DNA from: a virus
DNA length: 38,592 nucleotides
IMG/VR virus record: IMGVR_UViG_3300045988_043362
Span: 1 to 38,592 of that record
Strand: one strand, 5' to 3'
Shown here: positions 26,412-34,064 of the stretch, in pieces
Numbering within the stretch: the first letter of the stretch is position 1
Layout of the letters: each line of letters begins with the position of its first letter
Notes under the pieces: model-generated
Seen by the model: the letters and a program-made list of their open reading frames with translations, nothing else
Database searches by the model: none
What the model was told of the DNA's origin: nothing
Program-made: the position numbers and the translations under genes

Positions 26412-27317
26412 ATGGCTTCTATTTATCCAAATACACGATTAACCAATTATGGCCGTGAGTTAATCGCAAGATCACAAGCAACAGGTAAGAAGTTGCAGTA
26501 TATTAAATTAGTTACGGGGGACGGCCAGCTCGATAATCAAAATATCGATACTATGACTTCCGTAATAGCTCCAAAATTGGAGTGTCCGTTTACCTCTAAT
26601 GGTGAATTCGTAGGAGACGGTCAATTTAGAATTGAATTTGCAGTAGGCAATAGTACGGTAACTAATGGATTCTTTGCTAGGGAATTAGGCGTATATGCTA
26701 ATTTAGAAGGTGAATCTGATTCCGCTGCTAGATTAATTGCATATAGTAATGGCGGTAACTACGCATCCTATATCCCGTCCAAAGAGACGCCAATCAATTC
26801 TAAAGTGTTCTCTTTAGATGTTGTAATTGGCAATTCTACCAATGTAACCGTTAAGAAGATTGATGCGGCATATCTGACTAGAGGTGCATTAGAGGCCCAT
26901 AGCCGTGACACAAGTGCGCACGCTCCTATCACAGACCAAATCAAAGCAATCCTAGGCAGTGCTAACTGGAAAGACTCTCCGGCAAGTACGCTTGTTACAA
27001 TTAAAAACTTACTAGGCCAAGGCGCTATCGTGGCATCTAAACTCGATGCTAATGCCGGTTTCGTAAAATTTGCCAATGGTTTCACTATCCAGTGGGGAAC
27101 TGGTGGCCAAGATAATGTAACCAAGACAGAAGTAACATTCCCTATTCGTTTTAAGACTCTATTCATGGCAAATGCGATTGATGCGTATTGGAGTGGGTCA
27201 GAGACACCAAGATATTTTGCAAACTCTGTAAGCGAAAGCAACAATACAAAAGCTGTATTTGTGGCGAGTGATAGATATGCTGCATCATATTACTGGTTCG
27301 CACTAGGGATTATTTAA
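26412..27317 (+). CDS. Tail fibre protein (tail-collar N-terminus; currently expressed C-terminal variant A)
   Basis: The N-terminus TNYGRELIARSQATGKKLQYIKLVTGDGQL is tail-collar-like. The C-terminal tip follows FTIQWG, and crossover core CCAGTGGGG lies at 27089-27097. Confidence 0.85.
   Translation: MASIYPNTRLTNYGRELIARSQATGKKLQYIKLVTGDGQLDNQNIDTMTSVIAPKLECPFTSNGEFVGDGQFRIEFAVGNSTVTNGFFARELGVYANLEGESDSAARLIAYSNGGNYASYIPSKETPINSKVFSLDVVIGNSTNVTVKKIDAAYLTRGALEAHSRDTSAHAPITDQIKAILGSANWKDSPASTLVTIKNLLGQGAIVASKLDANAGFVKFANGFTIQWGTGGQDNVTKTEVTFPIRFKTLFMANAIDAYWSGSETPRYFANSVSESNNTKAVFVASDRYAASYYWFALGII
27089..27097 (+). repeat. Recombination core site A (CCAGTGGGG) inside the fibre gene
   Basis: It covers the Q227-W228-G229 codons. 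The identical 9-mer occurs inverted at 27540-27548 and 27828-27836. Confidence 0.75.
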
Positions 27318-27840: not shown

Positions 27841-28692
27841 TTACTTTAGTAACTCAATGGCTTTTCGTAACTCACGAATAGTCTTATGAGTGTATACTCT
27901 AGTGGTAATATCACCTTGTTTGTGGCCTAGTAATGAGCGCAAAGCGTTAGGCGGTGCGACCGAATCAAGTAAACTTGCGAATGTGTGTCTGGTATCGTGG
28001 ATAGTATGCTTACAATTTAACTGTTTCATAATATTTTGAAAATGCTTACGGAATGTTGTGTAACTTACAGTAAATAGATAATCATCAGTATATATATATA
28101 ACAGTTCTATTAGCGGTATAATGCGACGATGTAATGGGATGATACGACCCTCGCTCGCTTTTGTTTTAGCGTGCCTTACGATGAGATATGATGATCGTCT
28201 ATAGATGTCTTGTTTTCGCAAATTAAGAAGCTCACCTATGCGGAGGCCTGTGTATAGCAGTATTAAAATCATACGGGAATAAGGAGTATCTATTGCCCAT
28301 AATTTGTTGATTTGTTGGCGAGTAAATACTTTTCGCTGAATCGTCGGTATATTGGGCCCTAGATTTAAGTGTAAGGCGTAATTAGTGATAGGGTAATCTT
28401 TAATGATTGCGTAATTAAATAATTGATTAAGTAGTGTACGGACTTTCTTACAAGATGAGTAGGAAAGTCCTTTTACGTGCATGGAATTAATCACATTTTG
28501 AAGGTGCTGAAAATGAATATCCGTGATAGGCATATCCGCTATGTTGGATATGTGTTTAAAAGCAATGCGATAAGACTTAACAGCGCTATCAGAAATAGAC
28601 TGAGAGTGAATAGGCAACCACTCGTTAAATAGTTGCCTTAATGTAATGGTATTGCGTTGTCTACGTTTTAGCATAACAGCGTAACGGCGCAT
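27841..28692 (-). CDS. Tyrosine recombinase (phage-integrase fold), proposed tail-fibre shufflon invertase
   Basis: The catalytic set is readable: YTGLRIGE (R), AKTKASEGR (K), HDTRHTFAS (HxxR), LLGHKQ (H), TRVYTH (Y). It is the only minus-strand gene in the late region and abuts site C. Confidence 0.85.
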   Translation of the reverse strand: MRRYAVMLKRRQRNTITLRQLFNEWLPIHSQSISDSAVKSYRIAFKHISNIADMPITDIHFQHLQNVINSMHVKGLSYSSCKKVRTLLNQLFNYAIIKDYPITNYALHLNLGPNIPTIQRKVFTRQQINKLWAIDTPYSRMILILLYTGLRIGELLNLRKQDIYRRSSYLIVRHAKTKASEGRIIPLHRRIIPLIELLYIYTDDYLFTVSYTTFRKHFQNIMKQLNCKHTIHDTRHTFASLLDSVAPPNALRSLLGHKQGDITTRVYTHKTIRELRKAIELLK

Positions 28693-29275: not shown

Positions 29276-30730
<1,455 letters not shown>

Positions 30731-30733
30731 ATA

Positions 30734-31072
30734 ATGTGGACATGGCAATTTGAATTGAACGACATATTAACCACCCTTACAATTGTAGGGGTGGTTGCAG
30801 GTGCAGGATATAGATTGTTGATTATTCCGTTGTTACAACAATTGGACTCTCAACGAATGCAAGATAATCTTATTTTTCAAGAAAAATGGGGAGTACTAAC
30901 TGATACTCTAAAAGATTTGAAAGATGAAATTAAATTATCACGTGCAGAACGAATTAAAGCCGAAAGCAAGCAAGTGTTGTTGTCAGCAAAAGTTGAAGCC
31001 TTAGAAGTACGTGTTGATGATATTAAGGAGGAGCTACATGAACATACCGCCAAATCTCATCAATACAGTTAA
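30734..31072 (+). CDS. Membrane-anchored coiled-coil protein (XhlA-like lysis accessory)
   Basis: An N-terminal TM segment ILTTLTIVGVVAGAGYRLLIIPLL is followed by a heptad-rich helix. It lies immediately before the holin. Confidence 0.35.
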   Translation: MWTWQFELNDILTTLTIVGVVAGAGYRLLIIPLLQQLDSQRMQDNLIFQEKWGVLTDTLKDLKDEIKLSRAERIKAESKQVLLSAKVEALEVRVDDIKEELHEHTAKSHQYS

Positions 31073-31370
31073 AAGATCATATCAATCTGTAAGGGGGGCT
31101 AATATCCACCCTACAGGTGTATTAGCGACGAGGGTACTAGTATTAGTTATGCTAGTACCTATTTTATTGGTGATTACTCAATATATCATGGCTTTTATTA
31201 GTGGTTATGTATCAGACGAAGCTAATAAGTTGATTAACGTAGGAATCAATATTATTGACCACATATTCATACCTAGCGTATTAATGGCTGTTGTAGGCTT
31301 CTTAGGACTTTGGCTAGATAAGAACAATAATGGCATTCCAGATAAATTAGAAGAGGAGGATAAGAAATGA
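31038..31370 (+). CDS. Holin (two TM segments, charged C-terminus)
   Basis: The ATG at 31038 follows AAGGAGGAG. TM1 is VLVLVMLVPILLVITQYIMAFI, TM2 is IFIPSVLMAVVGFLGLWL, and the tail is DKLEEEDKK. It lies before the amidase. Confidence 0.6.
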   Translation: MNIPPNLINTVKRSYQSVRGANIHPTGVLATRVLVLVMLVPILLVITQYIMAFISGYVSDEANKLINVGINIIDHIFIPSVLMAVVGFLGLWLDKNNNGIPDKLEEEDKK

Positions 31371-31885
31371 AAGTATTCATTAACCCAGGACATGATATTA
31401 ATTTAGATAGTGGAGCAGTTAACCCGGTATATGGGACACGTGAATGTGATGTGGCTCGTGATGCGGGCAAAATGTTGGCACGGTATTTAGAGACTGCAGG
31501 ATGTGAAGTTAGAACCCTGCAAGATGATGATTTAGGCCTTGTATGTGCTGAATCTGATTCTTGGGGTGCAGATATCTTTGTATCACTTCATTGCAATGCA
31601 TTTAACACGGAAGCTAGAGGTACAGAAACTTTGTATAAGTCCTTTAACGGGCAACGATTAGCAAACGACATTCAAAGCCAAATTATTCGCAGCATTAATA
31701 CAGTTGATCGTGGTGTTAAGAAACGTGATGACCTTTGGGTGCTAAATGGTACAGATGCAACCGCTGTATTAGTTGAAATGGCATTCATTGATAACGAAGA
31801 AGATCATACTATGTTATCTAACGACCTTGATACTATCGTTCGCGCTATTGCTAGGGGGATTACTGACTACGCAGGAGGGGTATAA
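31367..31885 (+). CDS. N-acetylmuramoyl-L-alanine amidase (Amidase_3 catalytic domain only) endolysin
   Basis: MKVFINPGHD...GAV...E...SLHCNAF...VLVEMAFIDNEED is an Amidase_3 pattern. At 172 aa there is no room for a wall-binding domain. Confidence 0.85.
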   Translation: MKVFINPGHDINLDSGAVNPVYGTRECDVARDAGKMLARYLETAGCEVRTLQDDDLGLVCAESDSWGADIFVSLHCNAFNTEARGTETLYKSFNGQRLANDIQSQIIRSINTVDRGVKKRDDLWVLNGTDATAVLVEMAFIDNEEDHTMLSNDLDTIVRAIARGITDYAGGV

Positions 31886-32370
31886 TGTATGACAAAATCA
31901 AAGTTTTACTTAATAGCCTTGGTTACCGCCATGCTGTTATCGGTGGTATTGTGCTCCTCTCCGTCTTTTGCTGCTGGTACATCTTCCACGAGCCAAGTGG
32001 AAGCAACAATCACGATTCCCTTAACACAGTGGAACGAATTGAAAAGCAACAACGAGAAATCCTTAAGCTTAATCGAGACATCCAGTCTTCCATTGACCGA
32101 AGCGCAGAGCTTAGTCATGAAGCAAAGGGAAGAATTGAACGAAGCACACAATACAATATCGACATTGGAAACAGAATTGATGAAAGCCAAAATGCTATCC
32201 ATGAAGCAAGAAGTTACCTTGAACGAAATGTCGAGCTCTTTGATAGAATTGAAAGGGCAAATCGACAACGACAAGAGAACAATCAAACGACTACGGATGC
32301 AGCGCAACCTATCCCAGATGGTGGGAGCGGGAGCAGTAATCGGAGTAGTGATTCATCGGTAAAGAGGTGA
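31885..32370 (+). CDS. i-spanin-like protein (N-terminal TM plus coiled coil)
   Basis: TAATG overlap with the amidase stop. The TM segment is AVIGGIVLLSVFCCWYIF, followed by IERIEKQQREILKLNRDIQSSIDRSAELSHEAKGRIERS... and a Ser/Gly-rich tail. Confidence 0.5.
   Translation: MYDKIKVLLNSLGYRHAVIGGIVLLSVFCCWYIFHEPSGSNNHDSLNTVERIEKQQREILKLNRDIQSSIDRSAELSHEAKGRIERSTQYNIDIGNRIDESQNAIHEARSYLERNVELFDRIERANRQRQENNQTTTDAAQPIPDGGSGSSNRSSDSSVKR
31889..32362 (+). CDS. Fully overlapping +1-frame ORF: signal peptide/lipoprotein-like N-terminus, coiled coil, C-terminal TM (u-/o-spanin-like)
   Basis: MTKSKFYLIALVTAMLLSVVLCSSPSFAAG is a signal peptide with a Cys at residue 22. A heptad-rich middle follows, and the C-terminal segment is MVGAGAVIGVVIHR. 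Confidence 0.45.
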   Translation: MTKSKFYLIALVTAMLLSVVLCSSPSFAAGTSSTSQVEATITIPLTQWNELKSNNEKSLSLIETSSLPLTEAQSLVMKQREELNEAHNTISTLETELMKAKMLSMKQEVTLNEMSSSLIELKGQIDNDKRTIKRLRMQRNLSQMVGAGAVIGVVIHR

Positions 32371-32469: not shown

Positions 32470-32517
32470 AAGCCTACTAGCTTAGATAAAAATCTTTGTT
32501 AGTAGGCTTTATTTTTT
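32470..32517. terminator. Bidirectional terminator between the convergent lysis operon and integrase gene
   Basis: aagcctacta (32470-32479) pairs with tagtaggctt (32500-32509) around a 20-nt loop, followed by tATTTTTTT. An A/T-rich tract also lies on the other side. Confidence 0.65.
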
Positions 32518-34064
32518 TAGAATGGTATAATTAAACGCAGCGGATAATGTGAATTTGCAATATAAAAGTGGTTCGTACAGCGTGTCATATGCACCACCAT
32601 ATCGCATGAGTGCGAACATTCAATGGCCTGTTCCTTAAATTGGGGCAGGTCATTACTATAATTGAATATAATTTCTACCCTATCATCAAATATGGTGGCT
32701 TGCTTTATGAAAGTATCGATAATGCTTGCTCTGCCTTGCTTGGTGGTAGGGTTTTCTTTTGCCATTTTGTGTAGAAAGAATTCTATATGCTCTGCAGTTA
32801 ATTGGATTTGATTGCTTGCCATTTCATGGTTCGCACGGTGTGTCATGTGGTCTTGTAATTCCGCCTCTGTTTTCTCTATTTGATTTTGTAACGTATCTGA
32901 TATGAACCCTTTGGCAATTGCTTTCATGTAATTATCTAATTCTGATTGCAATTGTTCGATACGATCATTAATCGATTGTAATTCTAATTCACTTGTACTC
33001 ATCATATCCTTATTAGCTTTGATGGCTAATTCTGCCAATTGCTCGATAGTATTCGGTTGGTTCAATATCTCAAGTGTTTGGTTGATTACGATATCCTCAA
33101 CTATTTCACGTTTTAGATTTGGCGCATCGCAAGTGTGATGTTTTCGTCTATTGTTACACACATAATAGTAATGCTTTTCTCCACTACGAGAAGTTGCCGT
33201 AGAGCCTACGTAATGAGCGTTACACTTTCCGCAATATAATTTACCGCATAGATTATAAAACTCGCTCCTAGATGCCTTTAATTTAATTCTACGGCTATTC
33301 GCTGATTGCACTTTATCAAATATTTCTTTTGAAATAATAGAAGGAATAGCATCTTCTACTATAATGTCGTTCCATTTCATGATGCCGATGTATTTCTCAT
33401 TGCTTAAAATGCGTCTAATTACCGCATATGAGAATTTTCCGCCTTTCTTGGATAAATACCCTTTGGAGTTTAGAAACGAGCATATAGAGGGGATAGAGTG
33501 TCCTTTTAGGTACATTTCAAAGATACGTTCTACTATTTTGGCCTCGTGTTTGTTAATGATGAGTGAATTGTCATTTGTCTTATCATAGCCTAGCGGTGTA
33601 GGTGTGCCGTTCATCTTGCCTTTTAATGCATTGTCAGTCATACCACGTCTAACCTTTTGAGCCAATTCTGCACTATAATATTCCGCCATGCCTTCTAATA
33701 CAGATTCAAGGATAATGCCAGCTGGGTCGCTACTGATATTTTCCTTTGCACTTATCACCTTAACACCATTACGTTTTAGAATGGACTTGTATACGGCACT
33801 ATCCTCACGGCTACGGCTAAAGCGGTCTAATTGGTATACAATAACATATTCAAAATTATGTTTCTTTGCATCGTCAATCATTTGGCGGAACTCTGGGCGG
33901 TGGTCTGTACGTGCTGATAATGCTTTATCTGTGTATATATGAGTGATAACAATACCTTCACGCTCTGCATATTCCTTGCACTCTCTTATTTGTCCTTCTA
34001 TTGATTCATCACGTTGTTTGTCTGATGAATATCTAGCGTATATTACACCTTTTGATAATTCCAT
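32517..34064 (-). CDS. int: Large serine recombinase (prophage integrase)
   Basis: The N-terminal resolvase domain is GVIYARYSSDKQRDESIEGQ...VIVYQLDRFSRS. The recombinase domain and zinc ribbon are CGKLYCGKCNAHY...YYYVCNNRRKHHTCD. The C-terminus is a coiled coil. Confidence 0.9.
   Translation of the reverse strand: MELSKGVIYARYSSDKQRDESIEGQIRECKEYAEREGIVITHIYTDKALSARTDHRPEFRQMIDDAKKHNFEYVIVYQLDRFSRSREDSAVYKSILKRNGVKVISAKENISSDPAGIILESVLEGMAEYYSAELAQKVRRGMTDNALKGKMNGTPTPLGYDKTNDNSLIINKHEAKIVERIFEMYLKGHSIPSICSFLNSKGYLSKKGGKFSYAVIRRILSNEKYIGIMKWNDIIVEDAIPSIISKEIFDKVQSANSRRIKLKASRSEFYNLCGKLYCGKCNAHYVGSTATSRSGEKHYYYVCNNRRKHHTCDAPNLKREIVEDIVINQTLEILNQPNTIEQLAELAIKANKDMMSTSELELQSINDRIEQLQSELDNYMKAIAKGFISDTLQNQIEKTEAELQDHMTHRANHEMASNQIQLTAEHIEFFLHKMAKENPTTKQGRASIIDTFIKQATIFDDRVEIIFNYSNDLPQFKEQAIECSHSCDMVVHMTRCTNHFYIANSHYPLRLIIPF

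Follow-up and report, generated by a model that had tools for sequence, protein, structure and literature searches.

The final ~480 bases of the lysis cassette in the virus record IMGVR_UViG_3300045988_043362 of IMG/VR (positions 1 to 38,592, the whole stretch analysed and hereafter the window) almost certainly form a real dual-coding unit, as judged from its sequence and that of its relatives, in which one segment of DNA specifies two proteins. Gene A (31885..32370, + strand, frame 0, 161 aa) and gene B (31889..32362, + strand, frame +1, 157 aa) both begin with ATG and share 474 nt, the overlap spanning about 97–100% of each gene; an open reading frame (ORF) list reproduces exactly the coordinates, lengths and overlap reported by the initial annotation of this DNA. 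The 38.6-kb window is part of a ~40-kb temperate phage and contains most of a temperate myovirus, encoding a terminase, an SPP1-type portal, capsid, tail sheath, tape measure and tail fibres, and the locus is described as a Veillonella prophage. A Shine-Dalgarno sequence AGGAGG (31873..31878, + strand), read directly from the sequence and probably shared by both genes, lies 6 nt upstream of the A start codon and 10 nt upstream of the B start codon, and is followed by the dual start ATGTATG (31885..31891, + strand), where the ATG of A at 31885 and that of B at 31889 are in different frames. The stop codon TAA of the upstream endolysin gene (31883-85) overlaps the ATG of A (TAATG). Overall, A and B probably constitute a dual-coded, lipoprotein-independent, spanin-like module, which is the reading we favour.

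The initial annotation regarded an accidental alternative frame of 157 codons as unusual, a view that is borne out by counts of the stop codons avoided. A stop in frame A is produced wherever a B codon with T in third position is followed by one that begins with AA, AG or GA (hereafter an at-risk context). Gene B has no such stop at its 42 at-risk contexts, against 1206 stops at 2974 contexts (40.5%) in the same relative frame of 40 other window ORFs (P=3.3e-10), where that frame never stays open for more than 52 codons. When the amino acids of B are fixed and codons are drawn from the usage of the phage, 14.1 frame-A stops are expected versus 0 seen (0/3000 resamplings), while a within-gene synonymous codon shuffle of B gives an expectation of 3.9 (P=0.0027). 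Third-position T makes up 11% in B versus ~33% in the other window ORFs. The remaining frames of the locus are not kept open: the third sense frame contains 21 stops, and the antisense 133-aa ORF with a TTG start (31906..32307, - strand), which is indeed open in the window as first described, lies in a frame carrying 0–5 stops (mean 2.9) across 81 sequences and stop-free in only 1 of the 81, and is therefore not conserved. As it also matches no family, the antisense ORF is rejected as a gene.

Homologous loci were aligned for a close-relative set of 80 IMG/VR loci and 13 further loci from Veillonella genomes, and repeated breakage of one frame, by which the initial annotation proposed that dual coding could be refuted, was looked for. 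Neither frame is interrupted anywhere along its length in 79 of the 80 IMG/VR loci; counted separately, A is open in 92 of 93 close relatives (80/80 IMG/VR loci and 12/13 Veillonella genome loci), and B in 12 of the 13 Veillonella genome loci, where L086 is the sole broken copy. Every indel among the 80 loci is a multiple of three. The sequence ATGTATGA is invariant at the dual start in 80/80 IMG/VR loci (in locus L089 the start is ATGCATG), and a GGAGG/GGGGG-type motif is found at the same spacing in each of the 33 different upstream contexts that the 80 relatives present, despite differing upstream genes.

The pattern of variation among these loci shows stronger constraint on frame B than on frame A. 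Identity of the window proteins to the 80 relatives is 75–97% for B and 68–96% for A, and is higher for B in 80/80. Nucleotide diversity is 0.201 at sites that are third positions of B codons and first positions of A codons (b3/a1), 0.087 at b1/a2 and 0.080 at b2/a3, so that the third codon position of A is the least variable site class. B thus carries a textbook codon-position signature, and A alone therefore cannot explain the variation. The changes that are silent in B are at the same time filtered by their effect on A: variants introducing a stop codon into A are seen at 0 of 23 possible sites, compared with 117 of 263 other B-silent variants (Fisher P=6e-6), and the B-silent transversions that are seen are conservative in A, with a mean BLOSUM score of 1.04 versus -0.56 for the unseen ones (P=7e-6, uncorrected for phylogeny), the effect of B-silent transitions on A being not significant (P=0.13). 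Synonymous divergence (pS) of B is 0.28, about half of the 0.53 in the adjacent amidase gene of the same 52 sequences, a comparison in which mosaic recombination is uncontrolled; this is one of the outcomes for which the initial annotation had suggested aligning the loci. Codon usage is uninformative as to the ancestral frame, both frames being atypical (z=-1.6 for A and -2.8 for B) because each frame distorts the other.

The arrangement also extends far beyond the close relatives. An exhaustive phmmer search against 1.84 billion protein representatives delimits a B family of 46 representative clusters, in which the deep full-length members have 144–177 aa and are 22–39% identical to B in alignment A5 (23–45% over matched stretches). 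DNA was examined for ten deep clades (L094/95, L096, L097, L098, L099, L100/101, L102, L103, L104 and L105), nine of which contain an A-like ORF of 127–168 codons in the same relative frame. These ORFs carry an N-terminal transmembrane (TM) segment and the motifs (D/E)KIK, SIDRS and RIE.AN. The starts of A and B are 2–40 nt apart across clades and usually take the form ATGNATG; ATGNATG or ATGAGTG is present in L094, L096, L097, L102 and L105, the order is reversed in L099, L100 and L103, where an ATG or TTG of B is followed 2 nt later by a GTG of A, and the start of A lies 16 nt upstream of that of B in L104 and 40 nt upstream in L098.

The strongest evidence for dual coding is an in-gene control in these deep clades, which compares the overlap with the region of B beyond the stop of A. 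Inside the overlap, each of the nine clades has 0 frame-A stops at 37–53 at-risk contexts (P from 3e-3 to 1e-16), and third-position T of B is 9–16%. Past the stop of A, third-position T climbs to 0.22–0.62 in 7/9 clades, and frame-A stops turn up at once in 5/9, at 4/5, 2/2 and 3/7 contexts for example. Over residues 1–130 the two proteins are about equally conserved in the deep clades (mean pairwise identity 0.26 for A and 0.32 for B), and beyond residue ~130 conservation is limited to B. Three database ORFs related to the unit are chimeric: P0264 joins an A-like N-terminus to a B-like remainder, and in P0282 and P0272 a B-like N-terminus is followed by a C-terminus of the A-like 'RIERAN' type. 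Either natural frameshift variants or assembly errors would account for these three.

It is highly unlikely, on the above data, that B is the sole gene and A an untranslated shadow ORF left open by codon and heptad periodicity. Such a reading would accommodate the normal codon-position pattern that is seen in B alone, the naive ratio of nonsynonymous to synonymous polymorphism (pN/pS) of about 1 for A, and the fact that conservation of A is partly a passive consequence of that of B. It does not accommodate the avoidance of third-position T, which is confined to the overlap with A and relaxed past the stop of A in most deep clades, nor the A start that accompanies the B start in all clades; the depletion of B-silent changes that are radical in A, the halved synonymous divergence of B, the codon-shuffle result and the failure of the third sense frame and the antisense frame to be kept open are likewise against it. 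The converse, that A is the sole gene and B a chance frame, is hardly credible. It corresponds to the annotation in PHROGs and by gene callers on complete contigs, as phrog_18860 represents A and ~40-kb contigs are the source of most A entries in the databases, but it is contradicted by the low variability of the third codon position of A, by the consistently better conservation of B, by features of B that persist down to 22% identity and by the 9.1 frame-B stops that are expected when the amino acids of A are fixed.

Protein A is, according to structure prediction, a type-II inner-membrane protein of i-spanin-like topology with a periplasmic helix of ~95 residues. It begins with a short N-terminus (MY(D/E)KIK), predicted to be cytoplasmic, which is followed by a TM segment (residues 15–36, core AVIGGIVLLSVFCCWYIF; 31927..31992, + strand) identified by hydropathy, modelled by AlphaFold2 (AF2) as a helix over residues 12–35 and hydrophobic in all clades. 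After a linker comes the long helix (residues 45–138; 32017..32298, + strand), which is seen in the AF2 model and in the deep-clade alignment A4 and contains the conserved motifs QR.S.ELN..IQ.SIDRS, RIER...Y and EAR..LERN.ELF.RIE.AN. The topology on which the initial annotation had called frame 0 Rz-like is thus borne out by the hydropathy and the predicted helix. The Ser/Gly tail to which it also drew attention does not hold up as a feature of A: this disordered region (residues 139–161; 32299..32367, + strand; predicted local distance difference test, pLDDT, below 50) has a conservation of 0.18–0.26, is missing from a 133-aa short form (L084, L088, L089 and L092) and from all deep clades except L098, whose tail differs, and is probably a passenger, i.e. 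the -1 reading of the Gly-rich anchor codons of B. The only Cys residues of A, 29 and 30, both lie within the TM segment. All of the 11 A-family members searched match phrog_18860, which has no functional label, while 4/11 show weak matches to phrog_739 'Rz-like spanin' (best E=4.7e-4) and 1/11 to phrog_7584.

Protein B is, from its sequence features, a secreted coiled-coil protein of the signal-peptidase-I type with a short C-terminal anchor, and not a lipoprotein. Its signal peptide (residues 1–28; 31889..31972, + strand), assigned by direct reading, consists of an n-region MTKSK, an h-region and an AXA-like c-region ending in the predicted signal-peptidase-I site SFA|AG, which is conserved as (S/A/V)FA|(A/S/Q)(G/D) in close relatives and as an AXA-type site in most deep members. 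A disordered segment separates the signal peptide from the motif TITIPLTQWNELK of the mature protein (residues 40–52; 32006..32044, + strand), which is close to invariant in close relatives and recognisable family-wide as T(I)xVPxxQWNxLK. The following coiled coil (residues 69–138; 32093..32302, + strand) comprises 10 heptads in a single unbroken register by heptad scan, with a hydrophobic a/d occupancy of 0.75–0.88 in one register, and the AF2 helix has pLDDT 88–96 over residues 81–140. The C-terminal module (32273..32359, + strand) is made up of a basic cluster KRTIKRLRMQRN (residues 129–140), a hydrophobic Gly-rich segment LSQMVGAGAVIGVVI (residues 141–155) and then HR; in most of the family it takes the form of an RxxRQRN(x)W motif, 12–16 hydrophobic residues and a terminal K/R. 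The signal peptide, the QWN motif, the heptad register, the RQRN motif and the C-terminal anchor all persist down to 22% identity.

The only Cys of B, Cys22, lies within the signal peptide, and the initial annotation took it for part of an imperfect lipobox and likened B to the unimolecular spanin gp11 of phage T1. Neither suggestion survives comparison with the relatives. A canonical lipobox is found in 0/72 close and 0/23 deep members (0/95 in all); Cys22 is present in 65/72 close variants and replaced by G, S, A or F in 7/72, with G or A at this position in several Veillonella genome copies, and 4/23 members of the deep alignment have no Cys in their first 40 residues. Since the signal-peptidase-I site moreover lies downstream of the Cys, B is rejected as a lipoprotein. 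Given the missing lipobox, the unconserved Cys and the all-helical periplasmic part, T1 gp11 is therefore at most a topological analogy for B. That B is a gp11-type spanin proper, with an outer-membrane lipoprotein end and a C-terminal inner-membrane anchor, is extremely unlikely: the frequency of Cys22 among close variants speaks for it, while the substitutions of this residue in intact relatives, the conserved cleavage site, the helical periplasmic domain and the hosts without a Lol system (see below) speak against it. The further statement that the same nucleotides encode the hydrophobic segments of both frames is right in part, as the N-terminal segments (residues 17–34 of A, 31933-31986; residues 7–22 of B, 31907-31954) share ~22 nt; the rest is not shared, and the nucleotides of the C-terminal hydrophobic segment of B give, in frame A, the Ser/Gly tail, which is not hydrophobic.

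Neither PHROGs nor Pfam contains a family for B, and Pfam and NCBIfam searches with A and B return generic coiled-coil or TM noise only. The label 'EnvC (AmiA/AmiB activator)' given by JGI to two B entries is an artefact of the coiled coil and is rejected, since no LytM domain is present in B. Comparison of the A profile with the B profile gives only a weak coiled-coil resemblance (41%). No relatives in cultured phages were found by tblastn with A and B or by blastn with the cassette against 50,697 GenBank phage records.

A role of A and B in the lysis cassette is very probable. In the window they are the final gene unit of a holin-endolysin cassette, and in every context examined they directly follow the endolysin gene, with one small TM gene in between in L105. 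The endolysin itself is of the Amidase_3 type in the window, Amidase_2 in L081, L100 and L103, GH25 in L088, L097, L098 and L104, and Peptidase_M15 in L095, L096 and L105. Every identifiable host is a Negativicute: Veillonella parvula, V. dispar, V. denticariosi, V. caviae, Veillonella sp. and an Anaeroglobus relative, where V. caviae is called from exact IF-3 and L20 matches adjoining L105 and a relative of Anaeroglobus geminatus is the host beside L104.

Canonical spanins require an outer-membrane lipoprotein. The Negativicutes possess a lipopolysaccharide (LPS) outer membrane tethered by OmpM (PMC5007114, PMC5491611), no LolA or LolB homologue is known from any Negativicute (PMC5007114), and no evidence for lipoproteins directed to the outer membrane was obtained in V. 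parvula (PMC5491611), so canonical o-spanins and u-spanins should fail in these hosts. In the literature collection searched, spanins or outer-membrane disruption in phages of Veillonella or Negativicutes are not the subject of any paper found.

The closest known kind of system is the embedded Rz/Rz1 architecture of phage lambda. Like Rz/Rz1, the unit stands at the end of the lysis cassette of a phage with a diderm host and consists of two genes with DNA in common, the second in the +1 frame; A has the architecture of an i-spanin, and some members of its family weakly match 'Rz-like spanin' PHROGs. Embedded o-spanins, however, usually start at 0.4–0.5 of the length of the i-spanin gene and are short lipoproteins (PMC6139136), whereas B begins 4 nt downstream of the A start, equals A in length and overlaps it essentially completely, and is the more constrained product, with a long coiled coil and a C-terminal anchor in place of a lipobox. 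Nor is there any periplasmic Cys in A or B or any detectable sequence homology between A and lambda Rz. The frame relation of lambda Rz/Rz1 that the initial annotation recognised here is therefore the same +1 relation, taken to an extreme, but the hierarchy of host and embedded gene is reversed in terms of constraint.

T1 gp11 resembles B in combining an N-terminal signal sequence with a C-terminal hydrophobic anchor, such that one chain could bridge the envelope. It differs in that B has no lipoylation signal, has a short anchor (12–16 residues), is always paired with A and has a periplasmic domain predicted to be helical, while gp11-type periplasmic domains are beta-rich. The overprinted genes of small phages (phiX174 B in A, E in D, and K; MS2 L) likewise use two frames of one strand, one of them more constrained and with suppressed synonymous variation. 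The ~40-kb myovirus carrying A and B, by contrast, has no obvious need for genome compression, the overlap is about 97–100% with starts 4 nt apart behind one ribosome-binding site, and both products are structured membrane proteins. The lambda holin gene starts S105/S107 provide another parallel, with close starts, one ribosome-binding site and two lysis proteins from one cassette gene; the lambda starts, however, are in-frame and give near-identical proteins, while A and B are in different frames and have unrelated sequences.

In the proposed mechanism, one Shine-Dalgarno sequence would serve the two starts 4 nt apart in different frames. Frame 0 would yield A, with its N-terminal TM segment in the inner membrane and a periplasmic helix, and frame +1 would yield B, which would be exported by the Sec pathway and cleaved by signal peptidase I to present a ~70-residue coiled coil, the RQRN motif and the Gly-rich anchor. 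A and B might then act after the endolysin by joining the inner and outer membranes, the outer membrane being destroyed by the two proteins once the peptidoglycan is gone; A would take the i-spanin role, and B would substitute for the outer-membrane lipoprotein that the host could not sort. Two geometries may be envisaged. The first is an end-to-end bridge running from the TM segment of A through the A helix and the B helix to the Gly-rich C-terminus of B in the outer membrane, and in the second both proteins would be anchored in the inner membrane, with the conserved N-terminal motif of B touching the outer membrane. Whether A and B act in outer-membrane disruption, as their position, host range and topology suggest, is evenly poised. 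We propose, tentatively, that they represent a new class of outer-membrane disruption system of diderm Firmicutes, where a processed B replaces the Lol-dependent o-spanin and pairs with A, and where the shared nucleotides would lock co-inheritance and stoichiometry through one ribosome-binding site and two starts.

Several observations weigh against this interpretation, some of them touching the coding of the unit itself. In L099, the tenth deep clade, A has a single internal stop, on a contig of 0.5x coverage, and rare broken copies occur among the close relatives: B of L031 ends after 117 residues (codon 118, at ~3349) with A intact, and both frames are interrupted in L086 (4001-4474, a metagenome-assembled genome). 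The latter two are either decaying prophages or sequencing errors. As to function, an hhalign comparison of the A family with lambda Rz finds no homology (probability 0.2%), although i-spanin families are many and mutually unrelated, and Foldseek searches of both AF2 models against viral structures return nothing below E=1, which is unsurprising for single long helices. A and B both lack any recognised feature for outer-membrane targeting, and the mature periplasmic domain of each is devoid of Cys; about 96% of two-component spanins have a periplasmic Cys (PMC6139136). The C-terminal segment of B could be a mere stop-transfer anchor, leaving both A and B in the inner membrane. The TM and coiled-coil gene at 30734..31072 could supply an alternative envelope factor, and the diderm host range is one drawn from the clades with identifiable hosts, several deep clades lying outside this count. 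The unit also adjoins an integrase gene, and accessory 'moron' genes are common beside integrases as well.

These points could be combined into another explanation, namely that both frames are real genes whose products, instead of disrupting the outer membrane, serve in lysis timing, as antiholin-like or membrane-tethering accessory factors of the holin and endolysin, or as accessory membrane proteins of the prophage, e.g. in superinfection exclusion, which is unlikely without being far-fetched. It would fit the lack of a lipobox, of periplasmic Cys and of homology to known spanins, the moron-like position next to the integrase, the additional TM and coiled-coil gene in the cassette and an anchor that may keep B in the inner membrane. 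It fits less well with the invariable place of the unit after four unrelated endolysin types across a deep divergence, its coupling to the endolysin by the stop/start overlap in the window, and identified hosts that are all diderm; in addition, no further gene resembling a spanin, be it a small lipoprotein or an embedded ORF, was noticed in or beside the cassette, for which no systematic search was made. The spanin-like module stays the reading we favour.

The remainder of the cassette precedes A and B on the same strand. The endolysin (31367..31885, + strand) is an Amidase_3 enzyme without signal peptide (Pfam E=8e-35, phrog_435). Upstream of it is a putative two-TM holin (31038..31370, + strand; phrog_27828) with homologues in L081 and L088; the ORF as listed begins with GTG at 31011 (31011..31370), and the ATG at 31038 is the likelier start by comparison with L081 (3087). 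A 112-aa TM and coiled-coil protein (30734..31072, + strand; phrog_8369 'hol-like') is encoded upstream of the holin and kept in L081 and L088, its ORF overlapping the holin ORF as listed by 62 nt. The small gene between endolysin and A/B in L105 encodes a 103-aa protein similar to this product. Downstream, the unit adjoins a serine integrase (32517..34064, - strand). An Rfam scan detects no RNA family, and a promoter and terminator scan gives nothing above background.

The window also contains a tyrosine recombinase (Phage_integrase, E=2e-20; 27841..28692, - strand) in the tail-fibre block, on the opposite strand and additional to the serine integrase. It is flanked by a gp53-like fibre (26412-27317) and a collagen-like fibre (29585-30730) and might drive an invertible tail-fibre or host-range switch. 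The protein encoded at 29585..30730 contains long collagen-like GPP/GPK repeats and repeated 'FRYSDFT.EQL.AL.GPKGD' units, and its relatives in L081 and L088 differ in the C-terminal receptor-binding part. Among the distant phages with the A/B module, parts of a diversity-generating retroelement (reverse transcriptase RVT_1 and bAvd) are found near tail genes in L100 (977-2766), L101 (892-1812) and L103 (3256-4566).

At this locus gene callers give either A or B, never both, and PHROGs holds A only; the databases contain about 2791 clusters for A, mostly from ~40-kb contigs, and about 2564 for B, mostly from short contigs. Such one-frame calls amount to a systematic annotation blind spot. With about 470 nt, the A/B overlap is among the longest and best-supported complete same-strand overlaps in tailed dsDNA phages, and it offers a natural model for the co-evolution of two structured proteins on one sequence as well as a model for one ribosome-binding site that splits initiation between two frames. 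It would represent a new class if the mechanism of B is confirmed. The arrangement, conserved across phages of outer-membrane-bearing Firmicutes, may be a means of breaking the host outer membrane, and is thus a testable candidate for how phages of the Negativicutes breach the LPS outer membrane.

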